Positions 13,609 to 43,269 of a DNA stretch of 64,000 nt are shown piece after piece. The translations under genes were made by a program, and so were the position numbers. The notes beneath the pieces are model-generated. The model was not told the origin of the DNA. It did not search any database and saw only the letters and a list, made by a program, of their open reading frames with translations. This DNA is from Ignavibacteriaceae bacterium. GTDB taxonomy: Bacteria > Bacteroidota > Ignavibacteria > Ignavibacteriales > Ignavibacteriaceae. The stretch covers positions 2,186,503-2,250,502 of the forward strand of contig CP129491.1 in NCBI GenBank assembly GCA_030584105.1, in the 5' to 3' direction. Numbering within the stretch: position 1 is the stretch's first letter; each line of letters begins with the position of its first letter.

Positions 13609-13657
13609 TTTTTTTTGGGGTTAGCCGTTTGCCGGAATAGTTTGCCTTGTTCCGAAG

Positions 13658-16647: not shown

Positions 16648-18930
16648 TTATCCTCCGTTTAATATTTTGGTTTCTGGTTTTACATTAAAATTTCTTTTGG
16701 ATACATCGATTACTTGTTGAAATTCAATCACGAAATTCGCCCCGTCGGTCAGTCTTTCAGATTCTTTTGTGGCAACATAAATTGTTGCATTGATCCTGTC
16801 TAAAATTTCTTTGACGATGTATAAACCTAAACCTCTCCCTTGTGCTTTCATTGAAAAAAATTCCGAAAAAATAAACAGTTCTATACCTTTTTTAACACCT
16901 GGGCCTGTATCAGCAATTGTTAGTTTCTTTTCCAATGAATCAATTTTGAATATGATTCTTTTATTTTTACTCCCTTTCAAATTCACCCAATAAATGGCAT
17001 TGTCAACAATGTTGATTAAGAATTGTAAAACTAATCCTAAATTGGTCCTTAACATAATGTCATCATCAGCGGTAATTTCTATTTTAATTTTATTCTGAAT
17101 TTCACTATCAAAATATTTCAATATTTTTTTAATTGATTGTAATAAACTAACCTCCTTAATTTCTCTTCTTTGAAACTTGAAAAGAGGTTGAATTATCTGA
17201 AGTTGTTCATACACAATTTTGATAATCTCCTGGACTTCTTTTAACATAGTTTCAGTCTCTGAGAAATCCATCCTATCACTCTTGATCTTAAGCAAACTGT
17301 TATTGATAATATTATTTAGTCTTGAGAGTAACATGAAAGTATCATGGGAAGATTTTTCAACTGCCATCCCAAGCCCTGCCAAATCTTCAACGGTTCGAAG
17401 TTTTAAGATAGTATTCTTTTGAAATTCTTCAATGCTTTTCTTAAGTTTATTAGCAGATTCAATAATTTTAAGATCGGTTCTTTCTTCTAAAGATTCTGTG
17501 AATTCTGTAATTGCGTCAGAAATTGACTGGTATGGTGCATTCGTATTTTGGGTAGATTTTAACTCCTTATGTATTTTATCAATTTTAATTTCTGCGTGAA
17601 ATATTTGTACAATCGATAGAACCACTGCTGCAAATTCGTCAAATATCCCACCAGAATTCATCAAACCTTGCCTGCTTGATGTATCTTTTAAATCTTTATT
17701 ATGCTCCTGAGAGATATATACAAAACCGACTATGTCACTATAACTAGGGTAATCACCGGCTTTTTGAACTGATCGCAACTTATCAAGTTCCAACCAATCA
17801 TATCCTTTCTCGCCAAACGGATATACTCTTACTCCATCTCTTAAAACATAAATAAAATGCTTTTTAAAAGCCTGAAGTTGTTTTCTATTAAGCTTTGAAT
17901 AATCTGGCTTTTTAAGATCATTTGCGAATAACGAAAATTTAAATTCACCAACAGATAACTTACTCTTATTGGACAGATACCCTTTCTTTTTCTTATTTAG
18001 TGCTTGAAGATCATAATTCTCTTTAGCTAAAATTTTATTGTCAAAAATTCTAATTATCTTGGAAAAGGCTCTCATCGGGTTTTTGGAGTTGTAGATAAAC
18101 TGAAGCTTCCCTTCATTATCAATCGTCCCGTACATCTCATAATCTGAATCCATTAAAATTTCTTTTAATGAATATTGGGATTCTTTAGTGATTAACTCAC
18201 CCTCCCAAATCATCTTAACATTAAAATCAGAGATAATTTCCTGTTTCAATTCTTCAGCTTTTGGGTCTTCAGCAGGAATCAATTTCTCGATTGATTCAAA
18301 AACACTCCTAAAATCATCTTTAGCCCACTTTTCTCTCAAATCAGTAATTCTTATAACCGTCCCACTCGATTTGATTAGTTCCCCATTTTGAAACTCCGTA
18401 ATAGTTGGTTCTATTTCACTAAGGAGTTTATGCTTTTTTGAACCTTCATCAGTGAAAAGCGTCGGTTCATCATCATCTAAGCCTTCGAAACTTACTTCCA
18501 AACAAAATTCTGATCCTTCATCTTTTCTGGTATAAACACTTACCTTTCTTCCAATTTTGTGAATCGCGAATCGTCCAATTCCTTTCTCACCTTGAATTGT
18601 TCGGCCAAGCTTCGTTACATTGTCCCTATTTATTTTTTTATCAAGTTTGTTAGGTGTTGCTGGTCGAAGCCACACTTCTTTCAGATCATTCAAACCCATC
18701 CCCAAACCATTGTCGATTATTTCAATTGCTTCCTCTCCACTATTTTTCGTTGAATTGGATTGGGAACCAGAGTCGTATTTAATAGTAACTTCAGTAGCAT
18801 CAGCATCGTATGAATTTTTTATTAACTCTGTAAGAGCAATTTTCCTATCGGTAATCAATTGATCACCCAATATGCTCAACAGTCTTGCGTACGGCTCAAA
18901 TTTATATTTAATTTTTTTATTTTTTGGCAC
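16648..18930 (-). CDS. double GHKL protein: N-terminal MORC/Hsp90/MutL-type ATPase plus C-terminal histidine-kinase-type ATPase
   Basis: N-terminal motifs ELIKNSYDADATEV, IEIIDNGLGMG and GEKGIGRFA. C-terminal motifs NIVDNAIYW (N box), IADTGPGV (G1) and GRGLGLYIV (G2), preceded by a possible H-box, VEKSSHDTF. The GTG start overlaps the upstream TAG by 1 nt. Confidence 0.7.
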   Translation of the reverse strand: MPKNKKIKYKFEPYARLLSILGDQLITDRKIALTELIKNSYDADATEVTIKYDSGSQSNSTKNSGEEAIEIIDNGLGMGLNDLKEVWLRPATPNKLDKKINRDNVTKLGRTIQGEKGIGRFAIHKIGRKVSVYTRKDEGSEFCLEVSFEGLDDDEPTLFTDEGSKKHKLLSEIEPTITEFQNGELIKSSGTVIRITDLREKWAKDDFRSVFESIEKLIPAEDPKAEELKQEIISDFNVKMIWEGELITKESQYSLKEILMDSDYEMYGTIDNEGKLQFIYNSKNPMRAFSKIIRIFDNKILAKENYDLQALNKKKKGYLSNKSKLSVGEFKFSLFANDLKKPDYSKLNRKQLQAFKKHFIYVLRDGVRVYPFGEKGYDWLELDKLRSVQKAGDYPSYSDIVGFVYISQEHNKDLKDTSSRQGLMNSGGIFDEFAAVVLSIVQIFHAEIKIDKIHKELKSTQNTNAPYQSISDAITEFTESLEERTDLKIIESANKLKKSIEEFQKNTILKLRTVEDLAGLGMAVEKSSHDTFMLLSRLNNIINNSLLKIKSDRMDFSETETMLKEVQEIIKIVYEQLQIIQPLFKFQRREIKEVSLLQSIKKILKYFDSEIQNKIKIEITADDDIMLRTNLGLVLQFLINIVDNAIYWVNLKGSKNKRIIFKIDSLEKKLTIADTGPGVKKGIELFIFSEFFSMKAQGRGLGLYIVKEILDRINATIYVATKESERLTDGANFVIEFQQVIDVSKRNFNVKPETKILNGG

Positions 18931-20198
18931 TATCGTTTCTTAAAAATGAGTATATGTTCTTTAGGATACACTTTAACACTATTCAATTCGCTTGGAGAAG
19001 TAAATCTCCCAGATATCGGGTGACGAGTTGTTGGAATCTGCTTCAATGAAATATTTCTCGTAATTCTTTTTTCTAAATAAAAACTTTCTTCTCTCATCAA
19101 ACTGATCAAAATATCCGAGGTGGGTATCGTAACTTCCCTAAGCTTACTATCTCCAACAACCATACAACAGGTTGCTCCTGGTTTTAAAATTCGATGTATT
19201 TCCTGAATTACCTGTTGCATTGAAATAAAATAATTCTCAATTTCTTTCGCAATTTTCTTATTTTTCACTGCTAATTGTGAAACAGTATCTGAGGCTAACA
19301 GACAATTTATTTCAGCTTCAATTTTTTCAGAGTAAAATGTTCCAATAAATTTTTTTCTAAATTCTCTAAGATCACTAAAAAAGTTAAACACATAACCAGA
19401 TAATTGATGAATATCCGCATATTCGTAAGATGTCGCATAAGGAGGGGAGGTAATTACAAGATCAACAGAATCATTTTCAAGTCCAGTATCCCGCGCATCT
19501 CTGAGATGAATTTCACTTTGAATATCCAATCGGTTCTTTTTACTTAGATAGCTATGAAATTCCATGTTCTTTTTCCACATTTTTTTAATCTGATATTCAA
19601 AGAGATTGAAAGGGTCCTTAATCTGTTTCTTTGGATCAATTTGTGGTTTAGTGCTATCTTGAAGCCAACGGCTGGAAGTTTTGAGAATGTTCGATAATCC
19701 AACTTTTAGAAAAGTCTCAAGTTCTTTATTATCTACTTCTTCGATACATTTTTTCAAATAGCCGATTTTGTTTTTCTGCTCTGGGCAAAACCAATAGTTA
19801 AGCCTCGGGTGATCGGATATATAGTATTTTTCTTCCTCGTTGTAGTTGCTAAACCACTCTTGAATTATTTCTAATAAATTTTGATGCGAACCTGGAGCAA
19901 TAGTAGTTATTTTCGATTTTGTTATCATTTCAGCAACTGGATTAACATCAAACCCAATAGACCTGTAGCCATGACTTTTTGCCTCAACCAATGTTGTCCC
20001 ACAACCGGCAAATGGATCAACAATAAGACAATCCTCTGTAGCGTAGGTCTCTATCAATTTGGAAACAATCTGTGGAATAAATTTTGCAGGATACCTGTGG
20101 TAACCGTGGGTGTAGCTATCGATAGACCTGTGCCCGGCAAAAGACCACTCATCTGAACATTCGTTAACTTTACTGTTCTCAACTGCTACACTCAACAC
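18930..20198 (-). CDS. DNA methyltransferase (N4-cytosine or N6-adenine; motif I precedes SPPY)
   Basis: HRYPAKFIPQIV..IVDPFAGCGTTLVEAK (motif I region) and DLVITSPPYATSYEY (motif IV). AT-rich. Confidence 0.8.
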   Translation of the reverse strand: MLSVAVENSKVNECSDEWSFAGHRSIDSYTHGYHRYPAKFIPQIVSKLIETYATEDCLIVDPFAGCGTTLVEAKSHGYRSIGFDVNPVAEMITKSKITTIAPGSHQNLLEIIQEWFSNYNEEEKYYISDHPRLNYWFCPEQKNKIGYLKKCIEEVDNKELETFLKVGLSNILKTSSRWLQDSTKPQIDPKKQIKDPFNLFEYQIKKMWKKNMEFHSYLSKKNRLDIQSEIHLRDARDTGLENDSVDLVITSPPYATSYEYADIHQLSGYVFNFFSDLREFRKKFIGTFYSEKIEAEINCLLASDTVSQLAVKNKKIAKEIENYFISMQQVIQEIHRILKPGATCCMVVGDSKLREVTIPTSDILISLMREESFYLEKRITRNISLKQIPTTRHPISGRFTSPSELNSVKVYPKEHILIFKKR

Positions 20199-20390: not shown

Positions 20391-22043
20391 TCACCCCTCG
20401 ATAAGTTTGATTTTAATTTTTTTGGTTACGGTATAGAGTTCGTTTTCTTCGGTGAGGATGCCGGGGGAGATCTCCTCAATATCCACATAGTTTTTTTTGG
20501 GCAGGGCGACGAACTCGCAGAAGTCAAAAAGGCGACTGCGGTCTTTCAGGACGGGTGCAAAGTCAGTCAGGTTATTTTTGTTTATGTGGAACTCGGCAGT
20601 AGCAATAGTGCTGTCGAAGACGATTTCGAAAAAGGAGTCGCTCGCCGGTTTGCTTTGAAAATCGTCAACACTGAAGGTTCCGGGCTTAAGTGAGATATCG
20701 CTGCTATAATCCGGCACATAATATGTTACCCGCATGCGCTCGAAGGTGCTTCTTAAATCGGGATTTGTTTTTCGAAGTGTCGCCTCAGAGCCTTTTCTGC
20801 TTCCGGTATCAGCCGGGTCTCCCTGCCTGAAGTCGGTTCTTGGGGCATTTTCGGAGGGGTCTCCCCCCTCTGAGGGGTATCTTTTATCGGGGGAGAGTTG
20901 CCCGCCGAGGCTGGCGGCACTTCCGGATTCAGAGGGGTTTTTTCCGGCGGAGGCGCCAGTTCCCTTTAGGTCAAACTCGCCAAAATTCCCCGTTTTCAGT
21001 ACCTTTTCCAACAATCGACGGGTTGTTTTAATCCCGTGGAAGTTGTAAAGGGAAACCAAAAGTGTAATTAGCAGAAGGCACAGCGCTGTGAAAATTAAGA
21101 TTTCGTTGGAAATGCCGCCTACGATCTCTTGCCCGCGATTGCTCGTACGGGATTGAGTGTCGGTGCCGACTGAATCATGCCCAAAGGAAGCAGTAAGTAT
21201 TTCGCTTTGGGTGCCGCTTCTGCTTTGTGTGCTACCTGCCGTGCTACGGGGATTAAAGTTCGCACCAGCAGAGGTTTCGCTTTGGGTGCCTGTGGAAACG
21301 GTGCCGCCTCTATTGCCTAAACTTCCGGCTTTTAACTCATCGGACAGAGTGCCGCCTCTATTGCCTAAACTTCCGGCTTTTAACTCATCGGACAGAGTGC
21401 CGCCTCTATTGCCAAAATCACCCGCTTTTGTACCACCGGACAGAGTGCCCGATACTTCCAAAACGGCAAGTGCACCCAGGAAAGCAAAAACTATTGCAAT
21501 CCTAAAGAGCAACGCCCGGTAACTTAAACACTTTCTGTTTTGAGGGTTGGGCTGTGTTTTACTTTTTGCCGCACCACCGGACAAAGTCGCAACGCTTAAA
21601 CACTTTCTGTTTTTGGGGTTAGGCTGTGTCTTAGTTTTTGCCGCACCACCGGACAAAGTCGCAACTTCTATATGCTTTTTGTTTTGGGGGTTTCCGCCGT
21701 CACCCGCCAATTCATAGTCTGTACAAAAAGGAATTTCATCCATATTATCCCGCTTGCCTAAGTTTTTATTGGGGTTACCCGCCACTTCACAGCCTGCACG
21801 AAAAGGAATTTCATCCATACTATCCCGCTTTTCCGGGTTTTGATCGGGATCGCCCGCCAATTCATAGCCTGTACAAAAAGGAATTTCATCCATACTATCC
21901 CGCTTGCCTAAGTTTTTATTGGGGTTACCCGCCAATTCACAGCCTGCACGAAAAGGAATTTCATCCATACTATCCCGCTTTTCCGGGTTTTGATCGGGAT
22001 CGCCCACCACTTCACAGCCTGTACGAAAAGGAATTTTATCCAT
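20391..22043 (-). CDS. repeat-rich membrane protein, unknown function
   Basis: The 550-aa ORF has 5 x 25-aa repeats (MDEIPF(R/C)(A/T)G(C/Y)E(L/V)AG(N/D)P...KRDS), 2 x 24-aa repeats (VATLSGGAAK(T/S)KTQPNP(K/Q)NRKCLS) and 3 x 16-aa repeats (GTLSDELKAGSLGNRG). It also has two hydrophobic helices and a non-repetitive c. 130-aa C-terminal domain. Confidence 0.5.
   Translation of the reverse strand: MDKIPFRTGCEVVGDPDQNPEKRDSMDEIPFRAGCELAGNPNKNLGKRDSMDEIPFCTGYELAGDPDQNPEKRDSMDEIPFRAGCEVAGNPNKNLGKRDNMDEIPFCTDYELAGDGGNPQNKKHIEVATLSGGAAKTKTQPNPKNRKCLSVATLSGGAAKSKTQPNPQNRKCLSYRALLFRIAIVFAFLGALAVLEVSGTLSGGTKAGDFGNRGGTLSDELKAGSLGNRGGTLSDELKAGSLGNRGGTVSTGTQSETSAGANFNPRSTAGSTQSRSGTQSEILTASFGHDSVGTDTQSRTSNRGQEIVGGISNEILIFTALCLLLITLLVSLYNFHGIKTTRRLLEKVLKTGNFGEFDLKGTGASAGKNPSESGSAASLGGQLSPDKRYPSEGGDPSENAPRTDFRQGDPADTGSRKGSEATLRKTNPDLRSTFERMRVTYYVPDYSSDISLKPGTFSVDDFQSKPASDSFFEIVFDSTIATAEFHINKNNLTDFAPVLKDRSRLFDFCEFVALPKKNYVDIEEISPGILTEENELYTVTKKIKIKLIEG
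21299..21450. repeat. 48-bp tandem repeat, about 3 copies
   Basis: GTGCCGCCTCTATTGCC(T/A)AA(C/A)... units lie within the 550-aa ORF. Confidence 0.85.
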
Positions 22044-22090
22044 ACTATCCCGCTTTTCCGAGTTTTGATTGATTTCTCCGCCCTGACCAC
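21669..22090. repeat. 75-bp tandem repeats in alternating A/B flavours (150-bp super-unit), 5.5 copies
   Basis: GGAATTTCATCCATACTATCCCGCTT... recurs. The array runs past the annotated ATG (22043) into the 5' flank. Confidence 0.85.
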
Positions 22091-22484: not shown

Positions 22485-25007
22485 TCAATTAACCGGTTCA
22501 TTCTCAAAAGTTTGTCCGTATTCTTTTGCACTTATTACAGTATTATACAGCCCGACTGAGGTTTCATTGTGGCGGTTTACTCCTGTGTAAGCAAGGCTGG
22601 GGTCTTCATACCTTTTGAATTTATAGACGGCGTCGTTCATAAGCCCTTCATTGAAAAGCCCAAGACTCACTAAAAGCTCGAAATCGGGAATTGATAACCC
22701 GGTTACCCGCTTGAAAAGGTCAGGTTCAAGTTCCCTAATTATATCCTGCAGGCTAAACTCCCGGAAATCAGTCAGATATAAGAAAACCGGTATTCTGGTA
22801 GCAAACTTGATCAGTTTTTCCTGAATCATTTTCCTTTTCGATTTATACTCTTTTTCCTCAGCAGTTAACTCTCTTTTTTCTTTATCTGAAAGTTCACGGT
22901 CGTTCGCGCTGTTTTTCAGTTTTTTGATAGTTTCCGATTTATTAATAATAGTTTCAATATCCTGATTCAACGATCTGAACCCCTCAATACTCATCAGCGC
23001 AGCCATAGCTTTCTCATTTGCCAGCAGGCGCCTGAGCGTGTTATTGTCAACATTTACGAGCAGAGCGCTCTCCCATCTTCTTGCAAGAAGTGTCGCTGTG
23101 GTACCACTCATCGCCATATCCAAAACCCCTGCAGCGTCTATCTGTTTCATTGAACTGCCATCGTAGGCAAGAATAGGCAAAAATGAGATAAACTCAGCCA
23201 CTTTTTCTTCAGGATTTTTATTATTCACATCAAGCCGGCAACTGTAGTCAGCAATTTGCCTTAAAGCCCGGTCGGGTGCAAAATCGAAAACATAACACTC
23301 TCTTTTCAGAATCTCTTCTTGGTTCGGGTTTTCGCCGTCAGGGTTCTTGATCACCCACGGTGTCTGCACCCGGAATGCCGCCTGAAAATAGGTTTCGGGG
23401 CTTGAGGAATTTCTTAGCATAAAAATGCCCGACCATGGCTTAACCGAAACGCCGGTGGTAAGTTTTCCGCATGAAAGCGTTATAGTTCTGGTTTTAACGG
23501 GGTTATCCATCTCTTTAGAAACGGGCGGAAGTGCCTCTGCGCCAATACCAGCCCCTGAACCTGCAGCAACCACAATCCCGAACTGCCGGTAGAAATCATT
23601 TTGCTCCTGCCTGAAAAGATTAGCCATTGCGTGGCACGCAGAAACACTCGGAAGAAACCAAAAAGTATGAGAAAGAATCTGAAGAAATCGCCTGTCGGAG
23701 TAGGGAAACGGCGGCTTTTTATCACCAAGTTTCAGATTATCAACCGTAGCCGGTGAGTGTGCGCCTCTTATCAAATCGAGCCATTTTTGAACTTCATTTT
23801 CATGAATAAATTTCGCAGCACTGAATTCGCCTTCAGCCTTAAAGAACTCGTTAAGGTCAAACTCGTTAAACTCACCCTTCAGCGCAATATCTTTAATTGC
23901 CGGCGGCAGTTGATAAGTCAGCATCACCATTCTTGGTAATGATTCGTAGGGGTTAGGTTCGTTTGGGTTGCTCCACTCAGCTTTTGCGCGTTGTTCATCC
24001 GAGTAAGTCCAGTTAAAAATTTGTTCTTCGATAAACTCACCCGAAGCAATCGCTCTGAAAGGTGTTCCGGAAAGATAAAGATAGTGGTTTGTGGTTATCG
24101 GCATAAATTCTTCGTCAAAATAATCAATACCGACACCCTCACCGAACTGAATCTCTTTTTTATCTTCCTCCTCAAAAAGGTCTTTTGCGTTCTCCCTCCA
24201 TGCGCCGTAGTGATACTCATCCAAAATCACGCAGTCCCAGTTTGTTGTGTGCACCCACTCGTTTTTTGGCTTTATTCCCCCCGCTTCATTTTTTCCGAGA
24301 AAATCCTGAAACGAACCAAAACAGACCAAAGGTTTGGAATTGTCGCTAATTTCAAAAGTTAAACCTTTTTCGGAATAGAATTGCCATCCCGCAAAATCGA
24401 TATGGGAAAGAAGGTCTTCTTCCCACGCTGTTTTAACCGCCGGTTTGAAGGTAAGCACGAGGATTTTCTTCCACCCCATTCTTTTTGCCAAGTGATATGC
24501 TGCAAATGTTTTACCGAATCTCATTTTTGCATTCCAAAGGAAGTGAGGCGTTCTTTCTTTGTTTTCCGGCTCGGATTTAAAACTTTCAAAATAGGCGATG
24601 GTTTTTTCAATCGCAGCTTCCTGCTCGGGGCGCAATTTGAATGTTTGTGTTCGATTTGCCTCGTTAGTCACCCCCTTTTGAACGGCAAGTATAGCCGATT
24701 TAACCTCTTTAACAGTACATCTGAACCATTCACCGGCGGGATTACTAATCCCCATTTTTCTCAAATATTTGTGAACATCTTTATCCATGAAAGATGAGCC
24801 GTCGTCTCTCATCGCTTTTTCTTCAAGAACGATTCTGTAGGGGAGTTCACCCGGACGGCGGGTTGGGTATTGCCCGGCAACACGGGTTTTTGCGTCCCTT
24901 GTTGTATATCCGACTTTTAACAGCCCGTTGTACTTTGGGTTCGTATCTTCATAAGCGTAAATTGTCGGGTTAACTTCAGGCCTTAATGGGAAAAATTTCT
25001 CAGACAA
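22485..25007 (-). CDS. T5orf172/GIY-YIG-like domain fused to SF2 DEAH helicase (candidate restriction/translocase subunit)
   Basis: N-terminal IYAYEDTNP..GLLKVGYTTRDAKTRV...GEWFRC. Walker A RFGKTFAAY, DEAH box VILDEYHYGA, and LYLSGTP. Confidence 0.7.
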   Translation of the reverse strand: MSEKFFPLRPEVNPTIYAYEDTNPKYNGLLKVGYTTRDAKTRVAGQYPTRRPGELPYRIVLEEKAMRDDGSSFMDKDVHKYLRKMGISNPAGEWFRCTVKEVKSAILAVQKGVTNEANRTQTFKLRPEQEAAIEKTIAYFESFKSEPENKERTPHFLWNAKMRFGKTFAAYHLAKRMGWKKILVLTFKPAVKTAWEEDLLSHIDFAGWQFYSEKGLTFEISDNSKPLVCFGSFQDFLGKNEAGGIKPKNEWVHTTNWDCVILDEYHYGAWRENAKDLFEEEDKKEIQFGEGVGIDYFDEEFMPITTNHYLYLSGTPFRAIASGEFIEEQIFNWTYSDEQRAKAEWSNPNEPNPYESLPRMVMLTYQLPPAIKDIALKGEFNEFDLNEFFKAEGEFSAAKFIHENEVQKWLDLIRGAHSPATVDNLKLGDKKPPFPYSDRRFLQILSHTFWFLPSVSACHAMANLFRQEQNDFYRQFGIVVAAGSGAGIGAEALPPVSKEMDNPVKTRTITLSCGKLTTGVSVKPWSGIFMLRNSSSPETYFQAAFRVQTPWVIKNPDGENPNQEEILKRECYVFDFAPDRALRQIADYSCRLDVNNKNPEEKVAEFISFLPILAYDGSSMKQIDAAGVLDMAMSGTTATLLARRWESALLVNVDNNTLRRLLANEKAMAALMSIEGFRSLNQDIETIINKSETIKKLKNSANDRELSDKEKRELTAEEKEYKSKRKMIQEKLIKFATRIPVFLYLTDFREFSLQDIIRELEPDLFKRVTGLSIPDFELLVSLGLFNEGLMNDAVYKFKRYEDPSLAYTGVNRHNETSVGLYNTVISAKEYGQTFENEPVN

Positions 25008-25063
25008 CGATTTTCTCCTCTCTAATCGCGGAGTTATGAATGTTGCCGGTTTTCAATAAAATT

Positions 25064-26602
25064 TTATTCTTTATTTCCATTATTCAATTCCATCGGGCGG
25101 ATCATTGAGTCAATAAATGCAATTTCCTCTTCAGTTAAACCGTATTTTGCATAAAGCTTTTCGTCGGTCCAGCTCTCATTAAAATCCTGCATTGGCACGA
25201 ACTGATAGACTTTTGATGACGCATGCTGTGTACTTTTACGCAATAAAACCAAAAATCTGAATAATTTTGTTTTTATATAACTTATTGCGTTTTCAGCAAG
25301 AATTTTAGTTTTAAATGGCCCTATCATAACATAAGTTTCGGAGCATATAGTAGAAGGTGCACCATAAAATGGTTTATTAATAATCTGATGTGGATAGGAT
25401 TCGCCAGCACCGTAAGCCATTGTAATAAAAACTTTATGAGCATCAATCCAATCTTTATTAACCTGGATTATCTCCCTACTACAATATGAAATTGATTTGT
25501 TCCCATAAATTAACAAATCTCTTTCGGTATCTCTTTGCTTATTTCCTTTATAAAATGTCCTAAGTCCAAATGGTTTTTGATTACTTACAAGCTCGGCAAA
25601 AGATTTCTCTTTTAAAAAAACAACTTTCCGATAAATTGAAACAGCTTCATTGAACCTAATAAAAATGTCAGAATCTTTTTCAAGAAGATATCTTTTATCT
25701 GTCGATTGCAAGTCACCTTGCTTTGTAGTTATTTCACACATACCAGAATAATCTCTATCCCATAAAAAATAGCAAACCCCACCCTTTATTTCTACGCCAG
25801 GAAAGCATTCAGTGGAAATTGGATAATCAACTAATTTACTTATCCGTCTATCATTCAACATCGTAATTCGGAAGTTATCTAATCCTCTTCCCCCTGAAAA
25901 CCATCTTGAAGGAATAACCATGGTAATAAATCTTGGTTCTAAGGATTTCGCTTGTAAGACAAATTTATCATAAAGTGGGATTGCACCCCCTCGAATTCTA
26001 ACCTCTGTTTGAGAATCACCTCCATCACTCAACTGATAAGGGGGGTTACCAACAATAACATCAAACTTCATGTTAAATAATTCTTCCGGATTTTCTGTGT
26101 GAATAAATTGATAAGCGTGTGTTTCAAGTTCTTCGCCCCTGTCATATACGGATTGGCTCGCACCGCAGAAAGAGCACCGTCCGTTCACCCAGGTATGTTC
26201 AATCCTGTTGTATAAAATATTTCCTTCTTCGGAGGTAAACCCCGTGCTGACGGAATACTTTCCGTTAGCCAGTCTTGAACAATAAAGAGTCCTCCTGGAT
26301 ATAAGGGATGTAATATCTGTGATAGCAATTCCAAATATCTGATTGGTATAAATATGGTTGATTCTTTCCTGAAGATCGGGGAATTTACTTTTAAGCCCTC
26401 TGTTAAGCCGTTTCGCAATTTCACGGAGAAAAACCCCCGATTTGCAAACGGGGTCCAAAAATTTTACATCGGGGTTGCTCCATAATTCAGGGGGCAACAT
26501 ATCCAACAAACTGTTTGCTAACTCCGGCGGTGTGAAAACCTCGTCACTGCTCAGGCTTGCCAAACAAGAAAGAACATCGGGATTGTAAACCGACTCATTC
26601 AT
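25064..26602 (-). CDS. Eco57I/TaqI-like N6-adenine DNA methyltransferase with C-terminal presumptive target-recognition domain
   Basis: SDEVFTPPELANSLLDML, motif I-like FLDPVCKSGVFL (first Gly position is Lys) and motif IV VIVGNPPYQ. The C-terminal c. 300 aa are visibly more AT-rich. Confidence 0.75.
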   Translation of the reverse strand: MNESVYNPDVLSCLASLSSDEVFTPPELANSLLDMLPPELWSNPDVKFLDPVCKSGVFLREIAKRLNRGLKSKFPDLQERINHIYTNQIFGIAITDITSLISRRTLYCSRLANGKYSVSTGFTSEEGNILYNRIEHTWVNGRCSFCGASQSVYDRGEELETHAYQFIHTENPEELFNMKFDVIVGNPPYQLSDGGDSQTEVRIRGGAIPLYDKFVLQAKSLEPRFITMVIPSRWFSGGRGLDNFRITMLNDRRISKLVDYPISTECFPGVEIKGGVCYFLWDRDYSGMCEITTKQGDLQSTDKRYLLEKDSDIFIRFNEAVSIYRKVVFLKEKSFAELVSNQKPFGLRTFYKGNKQRDTERDLLIYGNKSISYCSREIIQVNKDWIDAHKVFITMAYGAGESYPHQIINKPFYGAPSTICSETYVMIGPFKTKILAENAISYIKTKLFRFLVLLRKSTQHASSKVYQFVPMQDFNESWTDEKLYAKYGLTEEEIAFIDSMIRPMELNNGNKE

Positions 26603-27248
26603 TTTCCGTAAGCCTCAAAAAATGAGTAATTGGGTACTCAGCCACGGGAGTGGGTATGAACGCCTTTTCGCCAAGGTCAGAAAACAAGTTTTCTCCTTCA
26701 AGAGGTTGACTTTCAAGAAGGTTAGCCATTGTGTAGTCGCGTCTTTTTATCATATTATCGTTTACGAAGCTCCACTCACTGAAAACTATAGGTTCTGCCT
26801 TTTTATCGGGCGTTTTAAGAGTTAGGGCGTCACCCCAAAGAATATTACGATTTAAGATAAAACGGACTGAATTAAAACACTCGTGCCGGCACTTTTCTTT
26901 ATAAAGCCTTGAATATCGATCGGTGAAAATTGCAAATAACCGCTCGCGACACTCAATTACATTGTCAGGAAGGATATCGATACCATAAATTGAGGAAACA
27001 GCGAGCACACCATAGCGCTCCCATTCGAATTGACTGCTTTTGTAACGGGAATCGACAACCGTTAGTTTACGGCGAAGTATTTCGACGAGGAAATTCCCCG
27101 TTCCGCAAGCCGGCTCTAAAAACCGTGAATCGATCCGCTCGGTTTCCTGTTTTACGAGATCGAGCATGGCGTTAACCTCGCGTTCGGAGGTGAAAACCTC
27201 GCCGTGATCGGCGACCCGCTGCTTCGATTTAACCTGCATAGCGGTCAC
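26595..27248 (-). CDS. DNA methyltransferase N-terminal half (motifs X-I-II-III, no catalytic NPPY)
   Basis: HGEVFTSEREVNAMLDL, canonical motif I FLEPACGTGNFL, IYGIDIL and WGDAL. It ends at 217 aa without an NPPY motif and overlaps the downstream MTase gene by 8 nt. Confidence 0.6.
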   Translation of the reverse strand: MTAMQVKSKQRVADHGEVFTSEREVNAMLDLVKQETERIDSRFLEPACGTGNFLVEILRRKLTVVDSRYKSSQFEWERYGVLAVSSIYGIDILPDNVIECRERLFAIFTDRYSRLYKEKCRHECFNSVRFILNRNILWGDALTLKTPDKKAEPIVFSEWSFVNDNMIKRRDYTMANLLESQPLEGENLFSDLGEKAFIPTPVAEYPITHFLRLTENE

Positions 27249-27339
27249 AACTGATGATGATTGTTATGTGTGGCACTATAAACCCTGTTTTTGTTTCGCA
27301 AATTAGCAATAAATTTTTTATCCGCAAAGCGAAGAGGCT
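27118..27339. repeat. direct repeat, left copy (222 bp): first 44 codons plus 91 bp upstream of the 217-aa MTase-fragment gene
   Basis: Near-identical to 32420-32641 at an offset of 5302 bp. A few mismatches occur only in the distal c. 40 bp. Confidence 0.95.
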
Positions 27340-27545
27340 GCAAGCAGCGGTTACTGATCAACCATAAGTTGCCATTCTACAACAGGGCGATTACCAAACT
27401 ACAAACACGGTTGGCAAACTGCATAATCAGCACAGTTGTTACTCAGGTATAATTAAACCGGTGAAACATTAGTACAGTATGGCTGGTGACCGTGCAGACT
27501 TGAATCAGTTCAGCAATAAACACCCTTCAGAAAACGATCTCAAAA

Positions 27546-28571
27546 TCAGAAGGGAAGATCATACCCTCCCGAGGCACCATATTCATTATTAATCTCTTCG
27601 CTTTCAACAATTTTATTGATGATATTTCCCGCAGCTTCCTGCAAAAGATAACATTCATATACTCCTAACTTTTTGGATTCTGTTGTCAGAAAGTCGTAAA
27701 CCTCCCACAAAGTTTTGCATTTTCCAAGTTGAAACATGTATTCTTTCAAATCGTAAACAGATACTGCCGGGGAAAGGATACTCTTAACCTTAGGGGATAA
27801 TTTAGCACCATAGACTATTGAATTAGCTTTAACCAGCTTTTTATTAAACTCGGGTGCAATTCGGTTAAATTCCTCTTCAAAATCTTTTAACGAAGATTTA
27901 AAGTTCTCAAACCCACCACGATTGTGGTAGAAAAGGGTAGTGTCTCCTTTTTCCATAGTTACCGCTCCGTTGGAACAAATATACCTCAATACATGGACTG
28001 ACCGGGAAAGTGCTCCAAACCCTGTCTGAGAATTGGTGAAGTGCAGGCTGTAACCCACCAAATCGCCGACTTTAACCTCTGTTTCTAACTTTACATTGGT
28101 TCGAAATCTTGTGATGTAAGGATCATAATCGACTGTAGTGATGCCGAAATGTTTTATTGCTTCATAGAACTTCAAATCTTCAACGGTTTCATAATTGTGG
28201 GCTAAGATGCTATAGACATAGTCATTCTCAATCCGTAAGTTTACTCTGCTATTGTTATAGTTCTGTCCTCTTCTGTCAATTTCAGTGAGCAGATCATTAA
28301 TTATCTTTTCTTTTGCCTCCGTTGAAAGATAATTAACCATTTCAGTGCCGGTGTAAAACCAGCGAAAAATTTTCCTGACAAAAATGGTAGGAATAAGAAA
28401 CAAGTCGCTTTTTTGACCCTCAACCTGAAGGAACAGTTTGTTATCTTTTATCAGCGCTTTTAAATGATATGGCGCTACCTCAAGGTTCTGTACCTTTATT
28501 TTAGAACGGAAATCAAAAAACTGCTCCGGGCTTAAATTTACTTTTGAGTTTTGTTTGTTGTAATAGTACAT
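27546..28571 (-). CDS. DUF932-like (phage/plasmid TIGR03299-like) protein
   Basis: The 341-aa ORF contains FTNSQTGFGALSRSVHVLRYICSNGAV. This resembles the conserved NS.DGS.A...R.VC.NG core of DUF932 as recalled from memory. Confidence 0.5.
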   Translation of the reverse strand: MYYYNKQNSKVNLSPEQFFDFRSKIKVQNLEVAPYHLKALIKDNKLFLQVEGQKSDLFLIPTIFVRKIFRWFYTGTEMVNYLSTEAKEKIINDLLTEIDRRGQNYNNSRVNLRIENDYVYSILAHNYETVEDLKFYEAIKHFGITTVDYDPYITRFRTNVKLETEVKVGDLVGYSLHFTNSQTGFGALSRSVHVLRYICSNGAVTMEKGDTTLFYHNRGGFENFKSSLKDFEEEFNRIAPEFNKKLVKANSIVYGAKLSPKVKSILSPAVSVYDLKEYMFQLGKCKTLWEVYDFLTTESKKLGVYECYLLQEAAGNIINKIVESEEINNEYGASGGYDLPF

Positions 28572-28693
28572 TTTATTACTCCGTCTTTTTATTTGTTGTT
28601 TATCGTTTATTAATTTCTAAATGTGCCCCCTTATCCCTTAAGAGAGCCGGGTTTTTGTTTTTTCCGGTTTCGTAAAAAAAATCCAACACTTAT

Positions 28694-31495
28694 TTATGCC
28701 GCTATTTCCTCTTTTACCCTTGAAATACATTTTTCAAGGCTATGCCACACTTCATAATTCCAGAATCTCAGAACTTTCCAGCCTTCTCTTTGCATTGTAT
28801 AATCTCTCACATTATCATAACTGCTCCGCGTTCCCGGAACGGCACCTTCATGCCCGCTGCCGTCAACTTCAATGCAGATTTTTTTATCGTCAACAAAAAG
28901 CGCGATATCCATTCTGTACGCAAAAAAATTATACTGGCATTCCGGTTCAAATCCTTCTTCACGGAGTCTTGTTGCCATAATTTTTTCTTCGGGTGTCACG
29001 GGTTCGTGATTGTTTGAAGGGTTAAGGTTTTTTTCCGCATATTTTGCCAAACGACTTAATAATTTGCATTTTGATTTTTTACAAAACTGTTTGTTTCCAA
29101 CGACGATTAAATTAGATTTTGCCCGGGTCAATCCCACATTTATAAGATTGTCGTTCCCTGAATAAAAGAACTCGTTATTATTTTTTAATTTACCCTCAAT
29201 CTCGATTGAGTAACTGACTCCAAGAGAGAAAATCATTACATCTTTTTCATCTCCCTGAAACCGGTGAATTGTATCAATCACAATTTCTTTATTTCCTTTA
29301 TTCTTAGAAAGCAGCGGGGTACATGCCTCCAGTATCTTTTGGACTTGTAATCGAAACGGTGAAGTAATTCCTATACTTGTTATTTCTTCAGAATCAATTA
29401 ATACACTCAAAATTTCTTTGCATTTTTCAATTTCTTTCGAAAGAATAAATTTATTATAAAGCGGTATATATTCATCTTTCACATCAATCCACTCAAAAGT
29501 TGGTTTTTCCCCCCAATTATTTAATTCCAGATAATTAGTACGAATTTTTAATTTATTTCCGTAAAACTCATTGTTTGAAAATGAAATAATCTCTTTTTTT
29601 GATCGAAAATGTTCATCGAGCATTATTTCAGAAGAACCGTCAATATTTTTTGAACGGTGCGCTATTAGTGACAAGATTGAACTTACCCCAAACTCCCACT
29701 CATTGAACTTCATCAAATTAAAATACTGTTTGAATAGTGTTTTACGCCTTTGGGATGAAAGATTTGTAATATGATTAAGCTGTTTTTCATCACCAACTAC
29801 AATTAAACTTTTCGCCCTCAACATTAAACAGAGAGTGGAAGGTATATCGCATTGGCTCGCTTCATCTATTATAACATAGTCAAATATTCCCGGCGAAAGT
29901 GGGAGTTGCCCCGAAACAGACAGGTTTGAAACCGTCCATATTAAAAGAAATTTTCTTATTGGTAAAAATTTTTCCTTAAATTCAACTCGTTCCTGCTTAC
30001 TGTTGAATTGATTATCTATCCAGAAACTAAGTAATCGCTGATATTCATTCAGTAATTTTTTTTCGTTTTCATCGCGGAAAGAATAGTTTTTCCTGATCGT
30101 TAATATTAATATCGCTTTATTAATATTTAATAATTCTTCCCTTTTTCGAAAAATGAGGTCTGTAAGTTCTTCAACGCGCTTCAATTTTTCCGCCCTTAAA
30201 ATCGCTTTGTGATACCTGACCATTTTCTTTATTCTCGGAGAAATTAGGGCAGCTTTCGGAATTGAGTTTAATTTTTGAAGGTTGTAATAAATTTTTTCGT
30301 AATTAACGCTTCTTCCTTTAATATATTTTCTATATTCTTCAGAAATACTTAATCGGGTGTTATTTATTTCTTCCTGTTCAATTAACAGTTGATCAATCTC
30401 TCGTTCAATTTGTTTTGATTTAGCGGAAAGATCACGCAATTTCTGATCTTCCGCCGGCATAAAATTGTTATAATCCTGAATTTCCTGAATATTCGCTTTT
30501 AAAATAGATACTAAGTCCTTTTGACCTTCTGATCTTCCCAGTTTTAGCATAAAAGGCAGTTGGTCAAGGTATTTGTCAATTCGTGACATTACCGTTTCTA
30601 TCGCCTTATGGTTATGGCTGCTGAAAAGAATCGATTTGTTTTTCAAAAAAGCATTAAATATTATGTTTATTACAACATCTGACTTGCCGGTGCCGGGAGG
30701 TCCCTGAATATTGGTTATGCCTGAGGATAAAGCCATTTTAACCGCTTCTTTTTGTGAAGCATTAAGAGGTGTAAACATAGAAACATCTTCGTTCCCGGAT
30801 ATTTTACGGTTTGGCTCAAACAGATATTTTAGTGCACTTTCTGAAAAAAAATCATCCAAAGACTTTGAATTTAATTTGGCAATTTCTTTTAACTCGAACT
30901 CGAGTCCTTTTGTGAAATTAGATTTTTCACAGATAAAAAACGACGCTGCATTGGTATAAATATTTTTTTCCTTCTGTTCTTCCGGGTCCGTACTGATAAA
31001 TTGTTCCAAAGTTTTCATCAATTCTTCAACAATATTTCTCTTTTTCCCGTTGATTGGCTCAGTTAAATTAAGAGCTTCAACCTGCCTCCGAAAACCGTTC
31101 AGGTCAATTCCCATTTCTTCAAAAAAAGTCGAATTAAACCTGAACTCTTCATAATCCACTAAAACAAGTTCTTTCATTTCAGTGAGTATAAAAACAAAAG
31201 CAGGAATTATTTTTTTGTATTCTTTCTGATGAAAGATTGGGAAACCAATTACAAAATCTGTTACTTTTGCTTTTTCATCATTTATACCGAGTCTTTCTTT
31301 TATCCGTTGTATAGAATCAGCAGGAAAGTTCTCATTTTTTTGAAATAACTCAAACTCTTCTTCCTCCAAATTGAGGTAAGTTCTTTTCTTTTTCTTTTCA
31401 TCTTTGGCAACTTCTGTGGCAATTTTAAATTCTCTGTCTTCAATAACATACTGATGATAGTAGTCAATCAGCTTTCTAAAATCTTCTTTTTTCAT
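28694..31495 (-). CDS. SF1B (Upf1/Dna2-like, AAA_11/AAA_12) helicase fused to C-terminal DUF559/Vsr-like PD-(D/E)xK endonuclease
   Basis: Walker A IQGPPGTGKS, Walker B VIIDEASQC, plus VVGDEKQL, LDEHFRS, IHRFQGDEKDVMIFS and NVGLTRAKSNLIVVG. The C-terminus reads YRMDIALFVDDKKICIEVDGSGHE...REGWKVLRFWNYEV. Confidence 0.85.
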   Translation of the reverse strand: MKKEDFRKLIDYYHQYVIEDREFKIATEVAKDEKKKKRTYLNLEEEEFELFQKNENFPADSIQRIKERLGINDEKAKVTDFVIGFPIFHQKEYKKIIPAFVFILTEMKELVLVDYEEFRFNSTFFEEMGIDLNGFRRQVEALNLTEPINGKKRNIVEELMKTLEQFISTDPEEQKEKNIYTNAASFFICEKSNFTKGLEFELKEIAKLNSKSLDDFFSESALKYLFEPNRKISGNEDVSMFTPLNASQKEAVKMALSSGITNIQGPPGTGKSDVVINIIFNAFLKNKSILFSSHNHKAIETVMSRIDKYLDQLPFMLKLGRSEGQKDLVSILKANIQEIQDYNNFMPAEDQKLRDLSAKSKQIEREIDQLLIEQEEINNTRLSISEEYRKYIKGRSVNYEKIYYNLQKLNSIPKAALISPRIKKMVRYHKAILRAEKLKRVEELTDLIFRKREELLNINKAILILTIRKNYSFRDENEKKLLNEYQRLLSFWIDNQFNSKQERVEFKEKFLPIRKFLLIWTVSNLSVSGQLPLSPGIFDYVIIDEASQCDIPSTLCLMLRAKSLIVVGDEKQLNHITNLSSQRRKTLFKQYFNLMKFNEWEFGVSSILSLIAHRSKNIDGSSEIMLDEHFRSKKEIISFSNNEFYGNKLKIRTNYLELNNWGEKPTFEWIDVKDEYIPLYNKFILSKEIEKCKEILSVLIDSEEITSIGITSPFRLQVQKILEACTPLLSKNKGNKEIVIDTIHRFQGDEKDVMIFSLGVSYSIEIEGKLKNNNEFFYSGNDNLINVGLTRAKSNLIVVGNKQFCKKSKCKLLSRLAKYAEKNLNPSNNHEPVTPEEKIMATRLREEGFEPECQYNFFAYRMDIALFVDDKKICIEVDGSGHEGAVPGTRSSYDNVRDYTMQREGWKVLRFWNYEVWHSLEKCISRVKEEIAA

Positions 31496-31497
31496 TT

Positions 31498-32238
31498 TTA
31501 CTTGTCTGTTAGTTCATTTTCAAGGTCGATAACTTCGAGCAAAGTTTTATGCATGGCTTTATTGTTCTCAATGAGTTCATTCAGGCTGTTAATGATTGCT
31601 TCATTAAGTTCCGCGACTTTCTCATGCTCTTTCGACCTTGTTTCGCTGATTTGTGAGCTTGTTTTTAAAAGTGAATCAATTTCCTCCGATCGTGTTTCAC
31701 TGATCTGCTTGTTTGCTGTGAGAAGTGTGTTCATTTCCTTTGATCTGGTTTCGCTGGTTTGCATAATGGCTTTATAAAGTGAATCAATTTCCCCCGATCG
31801 TGTTTCACTGATCTGCTTGTTTGCTGTGAGAAGTGTGTTCATCTCTCTTGACCTTGTTTCACTGATCTGCATGTTTGCTGTGAGAAGTGTGTTCATCTCC
31901 CTTGACCTTGTTTCACTGATCTGCATGTTTGCTGTGAGAAGTGAATCCATCTCTTTCGATCTGGTTTCGCTGATTTGCATGTTTGCATTAAGAAGTGTGT
32001 TCATCTCCCTTGACCTTGTTTCACTGATCTGCATAATGGCTTTATGAAGTGTGAATATTTCCTCTGACCTTGTTTTGGCACTTGCGTTATTATTTTCAAT
32101 CAACTTCTCGAACAACTTTTGAATTTTTTCATCGTTTTGCAGAAGTTCCTTTGTGTTTTTGAAATAAAAAACCAAAAATAGCGGTAATGAAACCAAAAGG
32201 ATCACTATGATTAGCAGGAATATTTGTGTTGTATCCAT
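31498..32238 (-). CDS. N-terminally membrane-anchored coiled-coil protein made of 18-aa tandem repeats
   Basis: TM helix IFLLIIVILLVSLPLFLVFYF, then about 8 repeats of ANMQISETRS(R/K)EM(N/D)(T/S)LLT. The stop lies 2 nt before the helicase start. Confidence 0.65.
   Translation of the reverse strand: MDTTQIFLLIIVILLVSLPLFLVFYFKNTKELLQNDEKIQKLFEKLIENNNASAKTRSEEIFTLHKAIMQISETRSREMNTLLNANMQISETRSKEMDSLLTANMQISETRSREMNTLLTANMQISETRSREMNTLLTANKQISETRSGEIDSLYKAIMQTSETRSKEMNTLLTANKQISETRSEEIDSLLKTSSQISETRSKEHEKVAELNEAIINSLNELIENNKAMHKTLLEVIDLENELTDK
31630..32075. repeat. 54-bp tandem repeat array, about 8 copies, in frame
   Basis: TTTCACTGATCTGCATGTTTGCTGTGAGAAGTGTGTTCATCTC(C/T)CTTGACCTTG units. Confidence 0.9.
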
Positions 32239-32419
32239 CTTTTGTATCTCCGATTTGTAATTATTAAATTAGTTTAATATTAAATTTTTACATTAACAGT
32301 TTTTAACACATCTTATTTTTTTCAATTGCTGCGGAAAAGTTAAACCTTCATAGAAATAAACCGGTTTTAGGTATTCCTTATTTTTGTTGGAATACATACG
32401 CGGGGAACGGCAAATAAAC

Positions 32420-32550
32420 AAAAACCGTGAATCGATCCGCTCGGTTTCCTGTTTTACGAGATCGAGCATGGCGTTAACCTCGCGTTCGGAGGTGAAAACC
32501 TCGCCGTGATCGGCGACCCGCTGCTTCGATTTAACCTGCATAGCGGTCAC
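32420..32550 (-). pseudogene. 5' fragment (44 codons) of the MTase-fragment gene, broken just before motif I
   Basis: MTAMQVKSKQRVADHGEVFTSEREVNAMLDLVKQETERIDSRFL is identical to the N-terminus of 26595..27248. The reading frame then runs into unrelated sequence, giving ORF 32293..32550. Confidence 0.85.
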
Positions 32551-32641
32551 AACTGATGATGATTGTTATGTGTGGCACTATAAACCCTGTTTTTGTTTCG
32601 CAAATTAGTAATAATTTTTTTATCCGCAAAGCGATGAGGCT
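32420..32641. repeat. direct repeat, right copy (222 bp)
   Basis: Matches 27118-27339. It contains the same ATG (32550) and the same 91-bp upstream region. Confidence 0.95.
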
Positions 32642-33142
32642 ACCGGCGGCGGAAATGTTGCCCCATCCGTCAACGGAGATGAAAATTAAACTGCCGGGCA
32701 GCAGCTACCTGCCTGAGCGATCCGCTTCTCACCACCACCCTTGTCCCGTTATCCTTTCAGAAGAAACTCATTTTCAGTAAAATATTCCACTTCATCAAAA
32801 ATACCCTCGTCCTGTTATCCTTTCAGAGTAAGACCCTTTTGAACAAAAACGGGGGAACCTCTGTTTATTTAGTATCAGGATAATGAAGAGCAAGAGTTCT
32901 TTCCGCAAGGGATGGGTGTTTGCTGCTCAGCCAAAAGTTGCTATTCCACCAAAAGCGCAGTTACTTAACAACAATAAAGGTGACATTTCAATAACCGGGA
33001 TGGTTATTGCTCCGACGGGGGCGGTTTGAAAATAGTTCTGCACACCCAAAAGTTGATAATTTCCCGCAAATGTTTACGGGTTAAAAAAATATCATTATTT
33101 TTATAGCCTTGTATTATTATTTTAATCAATTATTAAAACAAA

Positions 33143-42778: not shown

Positions 42779-43269
42779 AATACAACTATAAAGTGCAATA
42801 TCTTAAAGAGTTAATTAATTTTTTACAGGCTAATGACCCTTCTGGTGAAATTGGCAGAACGAAAGTTCAAAAATTATTATTTATTCTTGATCAAAAATAT
42901 AACTTAGGATTTAACTTCACCCTTTATCATTACGGGCCTTACAGTTGGGATGTATCACACCTTCTTCAGTTTGCTGTTAATCAAGAGCTAATTACTGAAG
43001 TATGGAACCAAGCAACAGGTTATAAAATATCGCCGACTAATAATTTGGATAATGTTGAAACGGAAGAAGGGATCAAAGAAAATATCGAAAACACTATCTC
43101 CGGTTTTTTAAAGTACAATGTTAAAGATTTAGCAATTATAGCTACCGGACTGTTAATTCGTGAGGGGACAAAAAAGAATTTGGACGAAATCGCTCAGATG
43201 GTTCATAATATAAAACCGGGTTCTGATCTCAATAAAATTAAATCTCTTCTTAACGAACAGATTACATGA
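42775..43269 (+). CDS. Panacea/SocA-like (DUF4065, YwgA-like) small protein
   Basis: ATGA overlap with the HD gene. GRTKVQKLLFILDQKY...LYHYGPYSWDV fits the T.KLQKLLY...GP pattern of the Panacea domain, as recalled from memory. Confidence 0.5.
   Translation: MKYNYKVQYLKELINFLQANDPSGEIGRTKVQKLLFILDQKYNLGFNFTLYHYGPYSWDVSHLLQFAVNQELITEVWNQATGYKISPTNNLDNVETEEGIKENIENTISGFLKYNVKDLAIIATGLLIREGTKKNLDEIAQMVHNIKPGSDLNKIKSLLNEQIT

Follow-up and report, generated by a model that had tools for sequence, protein, structure and literature searches.

What do three consecutive genes in a low-GC island of an Ignavibacteriaceae chromosome encode, and do they belong together? The genes, here called A, B and C, are located on the minus strand of a 64,000-nt stretch of contig CP129491.1, the whole of which is referred to below as the window, and follow each other in the order A, B, C. 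Gene A (31498..32238) is an open reading frame (ORF) of 246 aa, comprised of a single N-terminal transmembrane (TM) helix, a repeat-built stalk and a conserved C-terminal tail. Gene B (28694..31495) is an ORF of 933 aa, predicted to be a helicase–nuclease. Gene C (27546..28571) is an ORF of 341 aa, predicted to have a divergent DUF932 fold. The stop codon of A is separated from the ATG of B by 2 nt, while 122 nt separate B from C, exactly the coordinates and spacings given in a preliminary description of the sequence. We find that the cassette is rare and is situated in a bacterial defence island, and that A always occurs with B and is mostly then followed by C. Judging from the sequences, it is probably an undescribed form of the known helicase–nuclease anti-phage systems. 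All cassette features described below are on the minus strand.

The Helicase–Nuclease B and Its Coupling to A

By its sequence, B is an Upf1-like helicase of superfamily 1B (SF1B) fused to a C-terminal predicted nuclease of the DUF559 type. The helicase core (residues 244–802; 29090..30766) matches the Pfam families AAA_11 and AAA_12 with 92.3 and 94 bits, respectively (cut-off 27). The C-terminal Vsr-like domain (residues 837–931; 28703..28987) matches DUF559 with 42.7 bits (cut-off 20.6) and REase_MTES_1575 with 44.2 bits (cut-off 38.2). The N-terminal domain (residues 1–243; 30767..31495) has no match in Pfam, PADLOC or NCBIfam. The helicase motifs, that is, Walker A GPPGTGKS, DEASQ, VVGDEKQL, FQGDEKD and GLTRAK, are invariant in five orthologues, with an insertion of ∼200 residues separating motifs I and II. 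Also invariant across the five orthologues are D863, E876, D878, H882, D894 and R897 of the nuclease domain. Hence, both the complete set of Upf1/Dna2-type motifs and the C-terminal DUF559/Vsr-like module, which the preliminary description had read from the translation, are confirmed by family scores and by conservation. The closest solved structures found by a sequence search of the PDB are those of Sen1, IGHMBP2, Upf1, and Dna2.

Close relatives of B are few. Among 5.8 billion protein clusters, its orthologues form four close clusters with 50–62% identity, and a metagenome scan for B yielded only relatives with at most 39% identity, which had neither A nor C beside them. We counted the pairing of A and B in every B locus with the upstream side visible. 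An A-like protein is encoded directly upstream of B, with the gap varying from −1 to +3 nt, in five of five such loci: the window and the loci L001, L002/L003, L004, and L005. In a more distant locus, L010, a 924-aa helicase-DUF559 protein 31% identical to B is preceded, 5 nt upstream, by a gene whose 88-aa product carries a TM segment at its N-terminus. Over these loci, the gap thus stays between −1 and +5 nt while the identity to B falls from 62% to 31%. In the other 79 of the 80 distant helicase loci, no A homologue, C homologue or coupled TM protein was seen.

The conserved pairing of A with B therefore defines a small subfamily, and the helicase orthologues do keep their neighbours in other genomes. 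The fixed three-gene combination suggested in the preliminary description stands in part: A and B are found together in all five orthologous loci, and L010 has an analogous TM protein, but C is facultative.

The Membrane Protein A

The TM helix of A spans residues 6–24 (32167..32223; IFLLIIVILLVSLPLFLVF), with the Kyte–Doolittle mean over 19 residues being 3.33. There is no second hydrophobic segment in the protein, the Kyte–Doolittle maximum outside residues 6–24 being 0.02. Hydropathy thus agrees with the single N-terminal TM helix described earlier. The N-terminal TM segment is found in every A orthologue and in the small protein of L010. A itself has no match above threshold in Pfam, NCBIfam or PADLOC, and a homologue search with A gave no match at E ≤ 0.001. 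An exact look-up of A in the collection was also negative even though identical A genes are called in L097–L100, which is probably a matter of the database. Among the orthologous loci, the profile hidden Markov model of A matches with E-values from 1e-34 to 1e-58.

At the other end of the protein, A orthologues share a conserved tail, HKTLLEV(I/V)(D/E)LE(N/K)EL, that follows a variable middle part. In the window, its motif TLLEVIDLENEL (residues 232–243; 31510..31545) is among the few invariant columns of the alignment. Differences between loci in this region are distributed over the three codon positions as 20/12/88. As they fall almost exclusively on third positions, selection acts on the peptide of the tail and not on an overlapping ribosome-binding site.

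Between the TM helix and the tail, there is a tandem array (31597..32082) of nine in-frame units of 54 bp (18 aa), seven clean ones of the ISETRSxEMNTLLTANMQ type and two degenerate ones flanking them. Tandem Repeats Finder reports the period of 54 with 6.3–7.3 copies and scores of 387–493 at 31622–32075. Pairwise identities between the units range from 34 to 52 of 54 nt, so that the closest pair differs at two positions, and the longest exact runs are 43 nt at the shift of 54 and 49 nt at the shift of 108. The in-frame repeats are therefore real, although their number in the protein register is nine rather than the approximately eight counted before. The orthologous A proteins are 127–188 aa long and have no 18-aa repeats in the protein alignment; relative to them, the array is an insertion of ∼107 residues, with the TM-proximal part on one side and the conserved tail on the other. 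This means that the repeat-built anchor is not a feature of the family, as had been proposed, but is confined to A of this strain. One 18-aa unit would correspond to five turns of an ideal alpha-helix, so each unit would add ∼2.7 nm of straight helix.

The preliminary description also suggested that slippage in the array could make the protein variable in length. We retrieved six assemblies or contigs from the same strain cluster that encode the B protein of the window. In these, A has 246 aa in four cases and 228 aa in one (L101), and in the remaining one (L102), the contig stops within A. The gene in L101 carries an exact 54-bp deletion of one of two units identical at 52 of 54 positions, while all other bases of the gene are identical. 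Thus, among the same-strain assemblies that span the array, one of five has exactly one unit fewer. However, L101 comes from a fragmented assembly, and its contig ends beside the 233-nt repeat that flanks the cassette (see below). Similarly, the short-read contigs with the module (L100, L101, and L102) all end in or beside the 233-nt repeat or within the 54-bp array. Since these repeats limit assembly, copy-number calls from such short-read assemblies are unsafe. A collapse by the assembler is as likely an explanation of the shorter array as true variation.

The DUF932-Like Protein C

Compared directly with the Pfam DUF932 model (PF06067), C remains below the threshold (E = 0.041, 14.1 bits against the cut-off of 23, residues 161–223), while it matches phrog_1362 with E = 1.3e-6. 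We found ten close homologues of C. The profile built from C and eight close homologues retrieved 143 relatives among 1.84 billion representative proteins. Out of 72 aligned full-length relatives, 35 individually match PF06067, the best with E = 1.6e-10. The AlphaFold2 model of C calculated from this 72-sequence alignment has a predicted local distance difference test score (pLDDT) of 93.5 and a predicted template modelling score of 0.91; a nine-sequence alignment yielded an unusable model with pLDDT of 39. In BFVD, the model aligns over its full length with predicted structures of phage DUF932/TIGR03299 proteins (E = 4e-18, template modelling score 0.61). Neither the Foldseek fold search nor the profile search of PDB sequences gave a significant match to a PDB relative. 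RAD52 was considered as a fold relative and rejected, as its Foldseek rows were weak, with probability below 0.1. Taken together, the profile-linked relatives and the predicted structure indicate that C is a divergent DUF932-fold protein. The earlier assignment is hence borne out indirectly, as the direct Pfam comparison fails.

In the 72 sequences of the family, whose mean identity is ∼24%, G184 is invariant, and D170, N180, S181, T183, R196, C199, N201, G202, and H216 are nearly invariant (at least 90%). Most of these residues are within the signature of the family, FTNSQTGFGA...RYxCxNGA (residues 178–203; 27963..28040). This pattern of conservation suggests that these residues form an active site or bind a ligand. 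PADLOC places none of the family members in a defence family, and we found no functional study of DUF932, YfjQ or YafZ in the literature. Loss-of-function single-nucleotide polymorphisms in the DUF932 gene of an integrated plasmid have been reported after phage selection (preprint, bioRxiv 10.1101/2025.06.20.660599).

In order to describe the distribution of C, we compared the loci in which it was found. In the window, L002/L003 and L004, it starts 110–122 nt after B. In L094/L095, it lies 141 nt after a helicase-DUF559 tail that has 78% identity to B of the window, the position of A being off the contig. By contrast, two A–B loci with intact B have no C after it: in L001, the genes after B encode a SACS-DarT fusion and then a Macro protein, and in L005, a terminator-like hairpin comes after B. 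C also occurs without A, downstream of a second type of helicase-DUF559 protein with the same architecture (L008; 1024 aa, 33% identical to B), and downstream of a GmrSD enzyme (L007).

The B–C intergenic region (28572..28693 in the window) accompanies C into these other contexts. The region upstream of C can be aligned in seven loci, including the GmrSD locus L007, where ∼110 nt are homologous to the B–C spacer of L004; its conserved elements are CCGGAAA and the ribosome-binding site GGAG. In the window, the B–C intergenic region was found to contain no terminator-like site. A scan for Sigma-70 promoters gave promoter-like matches not above the expectation from shuffled sequences, and an Rfam scan of the island was uninformative.

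In several further loci, only traces of a helicase gene are left. In L009, 64 residues upstream of C are 73% identical to the tail of the L008 helicase, and a further stretch is broken by a stop codon. The 3′ remnants beside C comprise 21 residues in L090 and ∼20 residues in L006, and L091/L092 have only weak helicase traces upstream of C. In all these remnant loci, C itself is intact (322–333 aa). Two Ignavibacteriaceae metagenome-assembled genomes (MAGs) carry C; we considered it as a standalone gene there and rejected this, as the helicase 3′ remnants are directly upstream. Overall, C follows a helicase-DUF559 gene or its remnant in at least eight distinct loci, and it is always downstream, on the same strand, and with the conserved intergenic region. 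Thus, C keeps synteny with helicase-DUF559 genes, yet it is facultative and persists after they are lost. Because it stays intact when these genes decay, its function does not require B.

A profile search of genome contigs with the close C alignment retrieved one 3-kb MAG contig only. In viral contigs, there was no match to C, to its outgroup or to B; in plasmids, tblastn matched B to distant helicases only and gave no match to C. The C subfamily has been found only beside chromosomal defence-type genes and not in phage or plasmid collections.

Boundaries of the Cassette and Its Surroundings

The A–B–C cassette is bracketed by a 233-nt direct repeat with 97% identity between the copies and the spacing of 5302. 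The copy at the upstream boundary (32420..32652) covers the region upstream of a methyltransferase gene along with its first ∼44 codons, and continues as a truncated 85-aa ORF (32550..32293). The copy at the downstream boundary (27118..27350) consists of the same kind of upstream region and the 5′ end of an intact 217-aa methyltransferase-like ORF (27248..26595). In the alignment, homology stops abruptly at both ends of the repeat. We considered the possibility that the repeat is an assembly artefact and rejected it, as the copies are 97% and not 100% identical and the same arrangement recurs in several independent assemblies, in contigs of 0.2–1.3 Mb. Since the repeat brackets the whole cassette, A, B and C were acquired as one unit of 5.07 kb. 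A circular DNA with A–B–C and this homology, inserted by a single crossover (Campbell-type), would be expected to leave such a footprint.

From ∼14.5 to 33 kb of the window, the GC content is 0.31–0.46, compared with 0.45–0.52 in the rest of the chromosome, whose nearby genes include those for amylases and a GSDH gene with a sorting tail of the type IX secretion system. The GC profile and the Pfam and PADLOC matches thus support the setting in a low-GC island beside restriction–modification (R-M) genes. At related loci, the neighbours are also of the defence or toxin type, namely SACS-DarT and Macro in L001, HipBA and AbiEii in L006, and GmrSD in L007.

In L010 (10–7150), the distant A–B pair is at the end of an element with genes for a tyrosine-recombinase-like protein of 478 aa and for a small excisionase-like protein as well as DnaJ-like and RadC/JAB-like proteins, as read from the sequences.

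Relation to Known Systems

The preliminary description had not recognised the combination as a named system, and our comparisons agree with this. No PADLOC or NCBIfam system is matched over its full length: B gives partial matches only, while A and C give none. The partial matches of B are to PDC-S37, MkoA/MkoC, and Hhe in PADLOC and to ProA, PLuB, and Hhe in NCBIfam, all of which are anti-phage helicases. They are limited to the helicase core or, for Hhe, to the C-terminal half of the helicase and the nuclease. The NCBIfam scores are 79–153 bits, against cut-offs of 999–2000. In the literature on DUF559 helicases in anti-phage defence and on Hhe/DUF4011, we found no description of this gene combination.

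The closest known system is Hhe (Gao et al. 2020; NF042953; PADLOC PDLC02194), which, like B, combines an AAA_11/AAA_12 helicase with a C-terminal DUF559/MTES_1575 nuclease and resides in defence islands. B aligns to the Hhe models over residues 531–922, and the NCBIfam equivalog NF042953 scores 79.1 bits against the cut-off of 2000, with residues 531–918 aligned. Hhe has reportedly been described as a single-gene system. Unlike Hhe, B is about half as long, has a TM partner that looks obligate and frequently has a DUF932 partner. Although many distant relatives of B carry DUF4011 (PF13195), no match to this domain was found in B at E ≤ 0.01.

PDC-S37, MkoA/MkoC, ProA, and PLuB share the Upf1-like helicase core with B (E = 1e-38 to 1e-49). 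They differ in that the similarity covers the core only, in one to three stretches of profiles of 1100–1900 residues, with the NCBIfam scores being 131–153 bits against cut-offs of 999–1500. For PDC-S37 (1550 positions), the match with E = 3.3e-49 is split into three stretches, the best of which aligns residues 520–651 of B to profile positions 920–1041, and is thus not full-length. The PLD-family nuclease of Mokosh has no counterpart, as there is no PLD domain in A, B or C and the matches to MkoA/MkoC are confined to the helicase core.

With Zorya (ZorAB and ZorC/ZorD) and Kiwa (KwaA and KwaB), the likeness is conceptual, in that a membrane component is combined with a cytosolic, DNA-targeting helicase or nuclease. 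A, B, and C have no PADLOC match to these systems and no sequence relation to them. The membrane component of Zorya has a long helical tail whose length matters, but A is a single-TM protein and not a MotAB-like motor. Nhi (nuclease–helicase immunity; Bari et al. 2022) reportedly joins a nuclease to an SF1 helicase in one polypeptide that confers nucleic-acid immunity. The nuclease of Nhi is N-terminal and the SF1 helicase C-terminal, while in B this order is reversed, with the nuclease being C-terminal and of the DUF559 type. The PADLOC matches of B included no Nhi model, with the content of the library for Nhi not being confirmed. As for C, the DUF932/TIGR03299 “phage/plasmid-like proteins” (E. 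coli YfjQ/YafZ type) share with it the predicted full-length fold and the NSxTG...RYxCxNG signature. The difference is that C itself is below the Pfam threshold and that its subfamily is found beside chromosomal defence-type genes.

Possible Function and Alternative Explanations

We suggest, with about even confidence for and against, that A and B form a membrane-tethered, Hhe-like helicase–nuclease that acts on incoming DNA, with C being a separable DUF932-fold accessory. B would combine an SF1B translocase driven by ATP with an endonuclease of the Vsr type (DUF559). A would be a bitopic membrane protein, whose conserved C-terminal helix may hold B at the inner face of the membrane. Its helical stalk of variable length, extended here by the ∼107 residues of 18-aa repeats, would carry B at its end. 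At the membrane, B would load onto entering foreign DNA, phage or conjugative, and cut it. C, with its own ribosome-binding site and portable upstream region, would be linked to the pair but separable from it; its function is probably modulation, sensing or an independent role in conflicts with mobile elements. A defence function of the cassette is suggested by the genomic context, that is, by the R-M, DarT/Macro, HipBA, AbiEii, and GmrSD neighbours.

Several points weigh against this interpretation. The family is tiny, and all conservation statistics are based on approximately six independent loci. The N-terminus of B shares 29% identity with that of the L008 helicase, and a domain shared with a helicase that has no A is not obviously the one that binds A. 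Finally, DUF932 is typical of phages and plasmids and L010 is on an integrase-bearing element, making a role in mobile elements possible.

This last role is best considered as an explanation of its own. The module could serve a mobile element in entry exclusion, DNA processing, addiction or anti-defence, with C being a DUF932 backbone gene and A–B degrading competing incoming DNA at the membrane. The phage and plasmid origin of the fold relatives of C, the presence of the L010 pair as cargo among tyrosine recombinase, RadC-like, and DnaJ-like genes, the duplication around the cassette, as a Campbell-type insertion would leave it, and the loss of DUF932 function under phage selection all fit this explanation. 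However, the island in the window has no integrase, transposase or conjugation gene near the module, and no close relative of B or C was found in viral contigs or plasmids. The mechanism overlaps with that of defence, which makes the two hard to separate; we consider the service to a mobile element to be quite unlikely.

Still less can be said for B being a self-sufficient, Hhe-like single-gene system, with A and C being chance neighbours in a crowded island. While the 79 distant loci without A-like or C-like neighbours, the reportedly single-gene nature of Hhe and the absence of C from L001 and L005 are what one would expect of a singleton, chance would hardly place A directly upstream, within −1 to +5 nt, in all five orthologous loci and in the 31%-identical L010. 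Moreover, the C-terminal motif of A is under selection at the protein level, and at least eight loci have C or its cassette behind a helicase-DUF559 gene or remnant. On balance, we find a singleton decidedly unlikely.

The remaining alternatives assign different roles to the partners. That C neutralises the B nuclease as an immunity or antitoxin-like factor, or regulates it, and is an orphan where B has been lost, is in our view very improbable. Intact C beside 20–116 residues of the helicase 3′ remnant (L009, L090, and L006), and its constant same-strand, downstream position behind a conserved intergenic region, would be the traces of such a history. But B is tolerated without C, as intact B in L001 and L005 demonstrates, C also follows the unrelated nuclease GmrSD, and D170, S181, T183, R196, C199, and H216 look more like the site of an enzyme or a ligand than an inhibitor surface. 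We regard as highly improbable the possibility that A is the effector, a small protein that would disrupt the membrane once B, upon sensing of foreign DNA, releases or activates it, leading to abortive infection. Several defence systems use small single-TM proteins as effectors, and the translational coupling of A to B could be read in the same way. B, however, already has a nuclease domain with invariant catalytic residues, and one TM helix, a long hydrophilic stalk and a conserved cytosolic tail fit a tether better than a pore.

The tethered helicase–nuclease with a separable accessory is thus the interpretation that we prefer. It can also be put in a stronger form, which we regard as rather unlikely: A and B would represent a new class of “tethered” nucleic-acid immunity, in which the single-pass A keeps the helicase–nuclease at a defined distance beneath the membrane with an expandable ruler of 18-residue repeats. 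C would be a portable partner of unrelated DNA-targeting defence enzymes (the two helicase-DUF559 types and GmrSD), working alone after their loss, and would thereby place the large DUF932 family in a functional context for the first time.

If membrane tethering is true, a compact two-component form would be added to the Hhe/Upf1-like helicase–nuclease defence systems. The same B protein, paired with A stalks of 127 to 246 residues, would be a natural test of tether length. C would provide the first testable functional setting for DUF932, which is widespread in phages, plasmids, and cryptic prophages of E. coli. Both the way the cassette is built and the way C behaves are unusual and can be tested. 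As the family is very rare, being apparently limited to a few uncultured lineages, the practical impact would be limited until a phenotype is shown.

Other Features of the Island and of Related Loci

Immediately downstream of the cassette, the island encodes a split type IIG-like R-M system (22485–27248, minus strand), comprised of an 840-aa protein with T5orf172 (GIY-YIG-like) and ResIII domains and a 512-aa Eco57I-type methyltransferase. These two proteins match successive parts, 167–802 and 863–1359, of the PADLOC model REase_MTase_IIG (PDLC03626). The 217-aa ORF that carries the downstream copy of the 233-nt repeat is an N-terminal fragment of a methyltransferase without the NPPY motif, and overlaps the 512-aa ORF by 8 nt.

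The next ORF (20391–22043, minus strand; 550 aa) is the second repeat-rich protein of the island and is located between two R-M-like gene sets. It consists mostly of tandem repeats and has no Pfam or PADLOC match. The repeats comprise 75-bp units at 21700–22074, corresponding to the N-terminal sequence MDEIPFRxGCExxGxPxxNxxKRDS present four times, 72-bp units at 21523–21666, and 48-bp units at 21294–21449.

The other R-M-like set (15403–20198, minus strand) consists of genes for a 414-aa protein without an assigned family, a 760-aa double-GHKL ATPase, and a 422-aa N6/N4 methyltransferase. The genes follow one another head to tail, their ends adjoining or overlapping by 1 nt. The 760-aa protein has HATPase_c_3 and HATPase_c domains and a weak PADLOC match to REase_II. 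The three genes may represent an ATPase-dependent restriction system. At the left edge of the island, where the GC content drops from ∼0.45 to 0.33, there are two 140-nt direct repeats (14840–14979 and 15025–15164) with 94% identity, 185 nt apart.

In the related loci, sacsin-like (SACS/HATPase) N-terminal modules recur beside the module: in L001 (3738–8805), L093 (871–3600), and L091 (1–4432). The SACS-DarT fusion of L001 has 1476 aa and is encoded directly after B, followed by the Macro-domain protein. In L093, a related SACS-like protein comes directly after C, and in L091, the gene upstream of C encodes more than 1585 aa and combines SACS with AAA_11/12 helicase domains. Downstream of the helicase–C pair of L008, there is a run (5306–14646) of six same-strand ORFs of 133–1152 aa, with faint matches to Tubulin_2 and MreB_Mbl only.

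The window contains a second low-GC stretch (41486–47442; GC content 0.28–0.32). It encodes a 430-aa protein with HD and HD_assoc_2 domains, a 164-aa ORF that overlaps the HD gene by 4 nt, and ORFs of 911 and 171 aa; apart from the HD protein, all three are without a Pfam family. This stretch may be another island.

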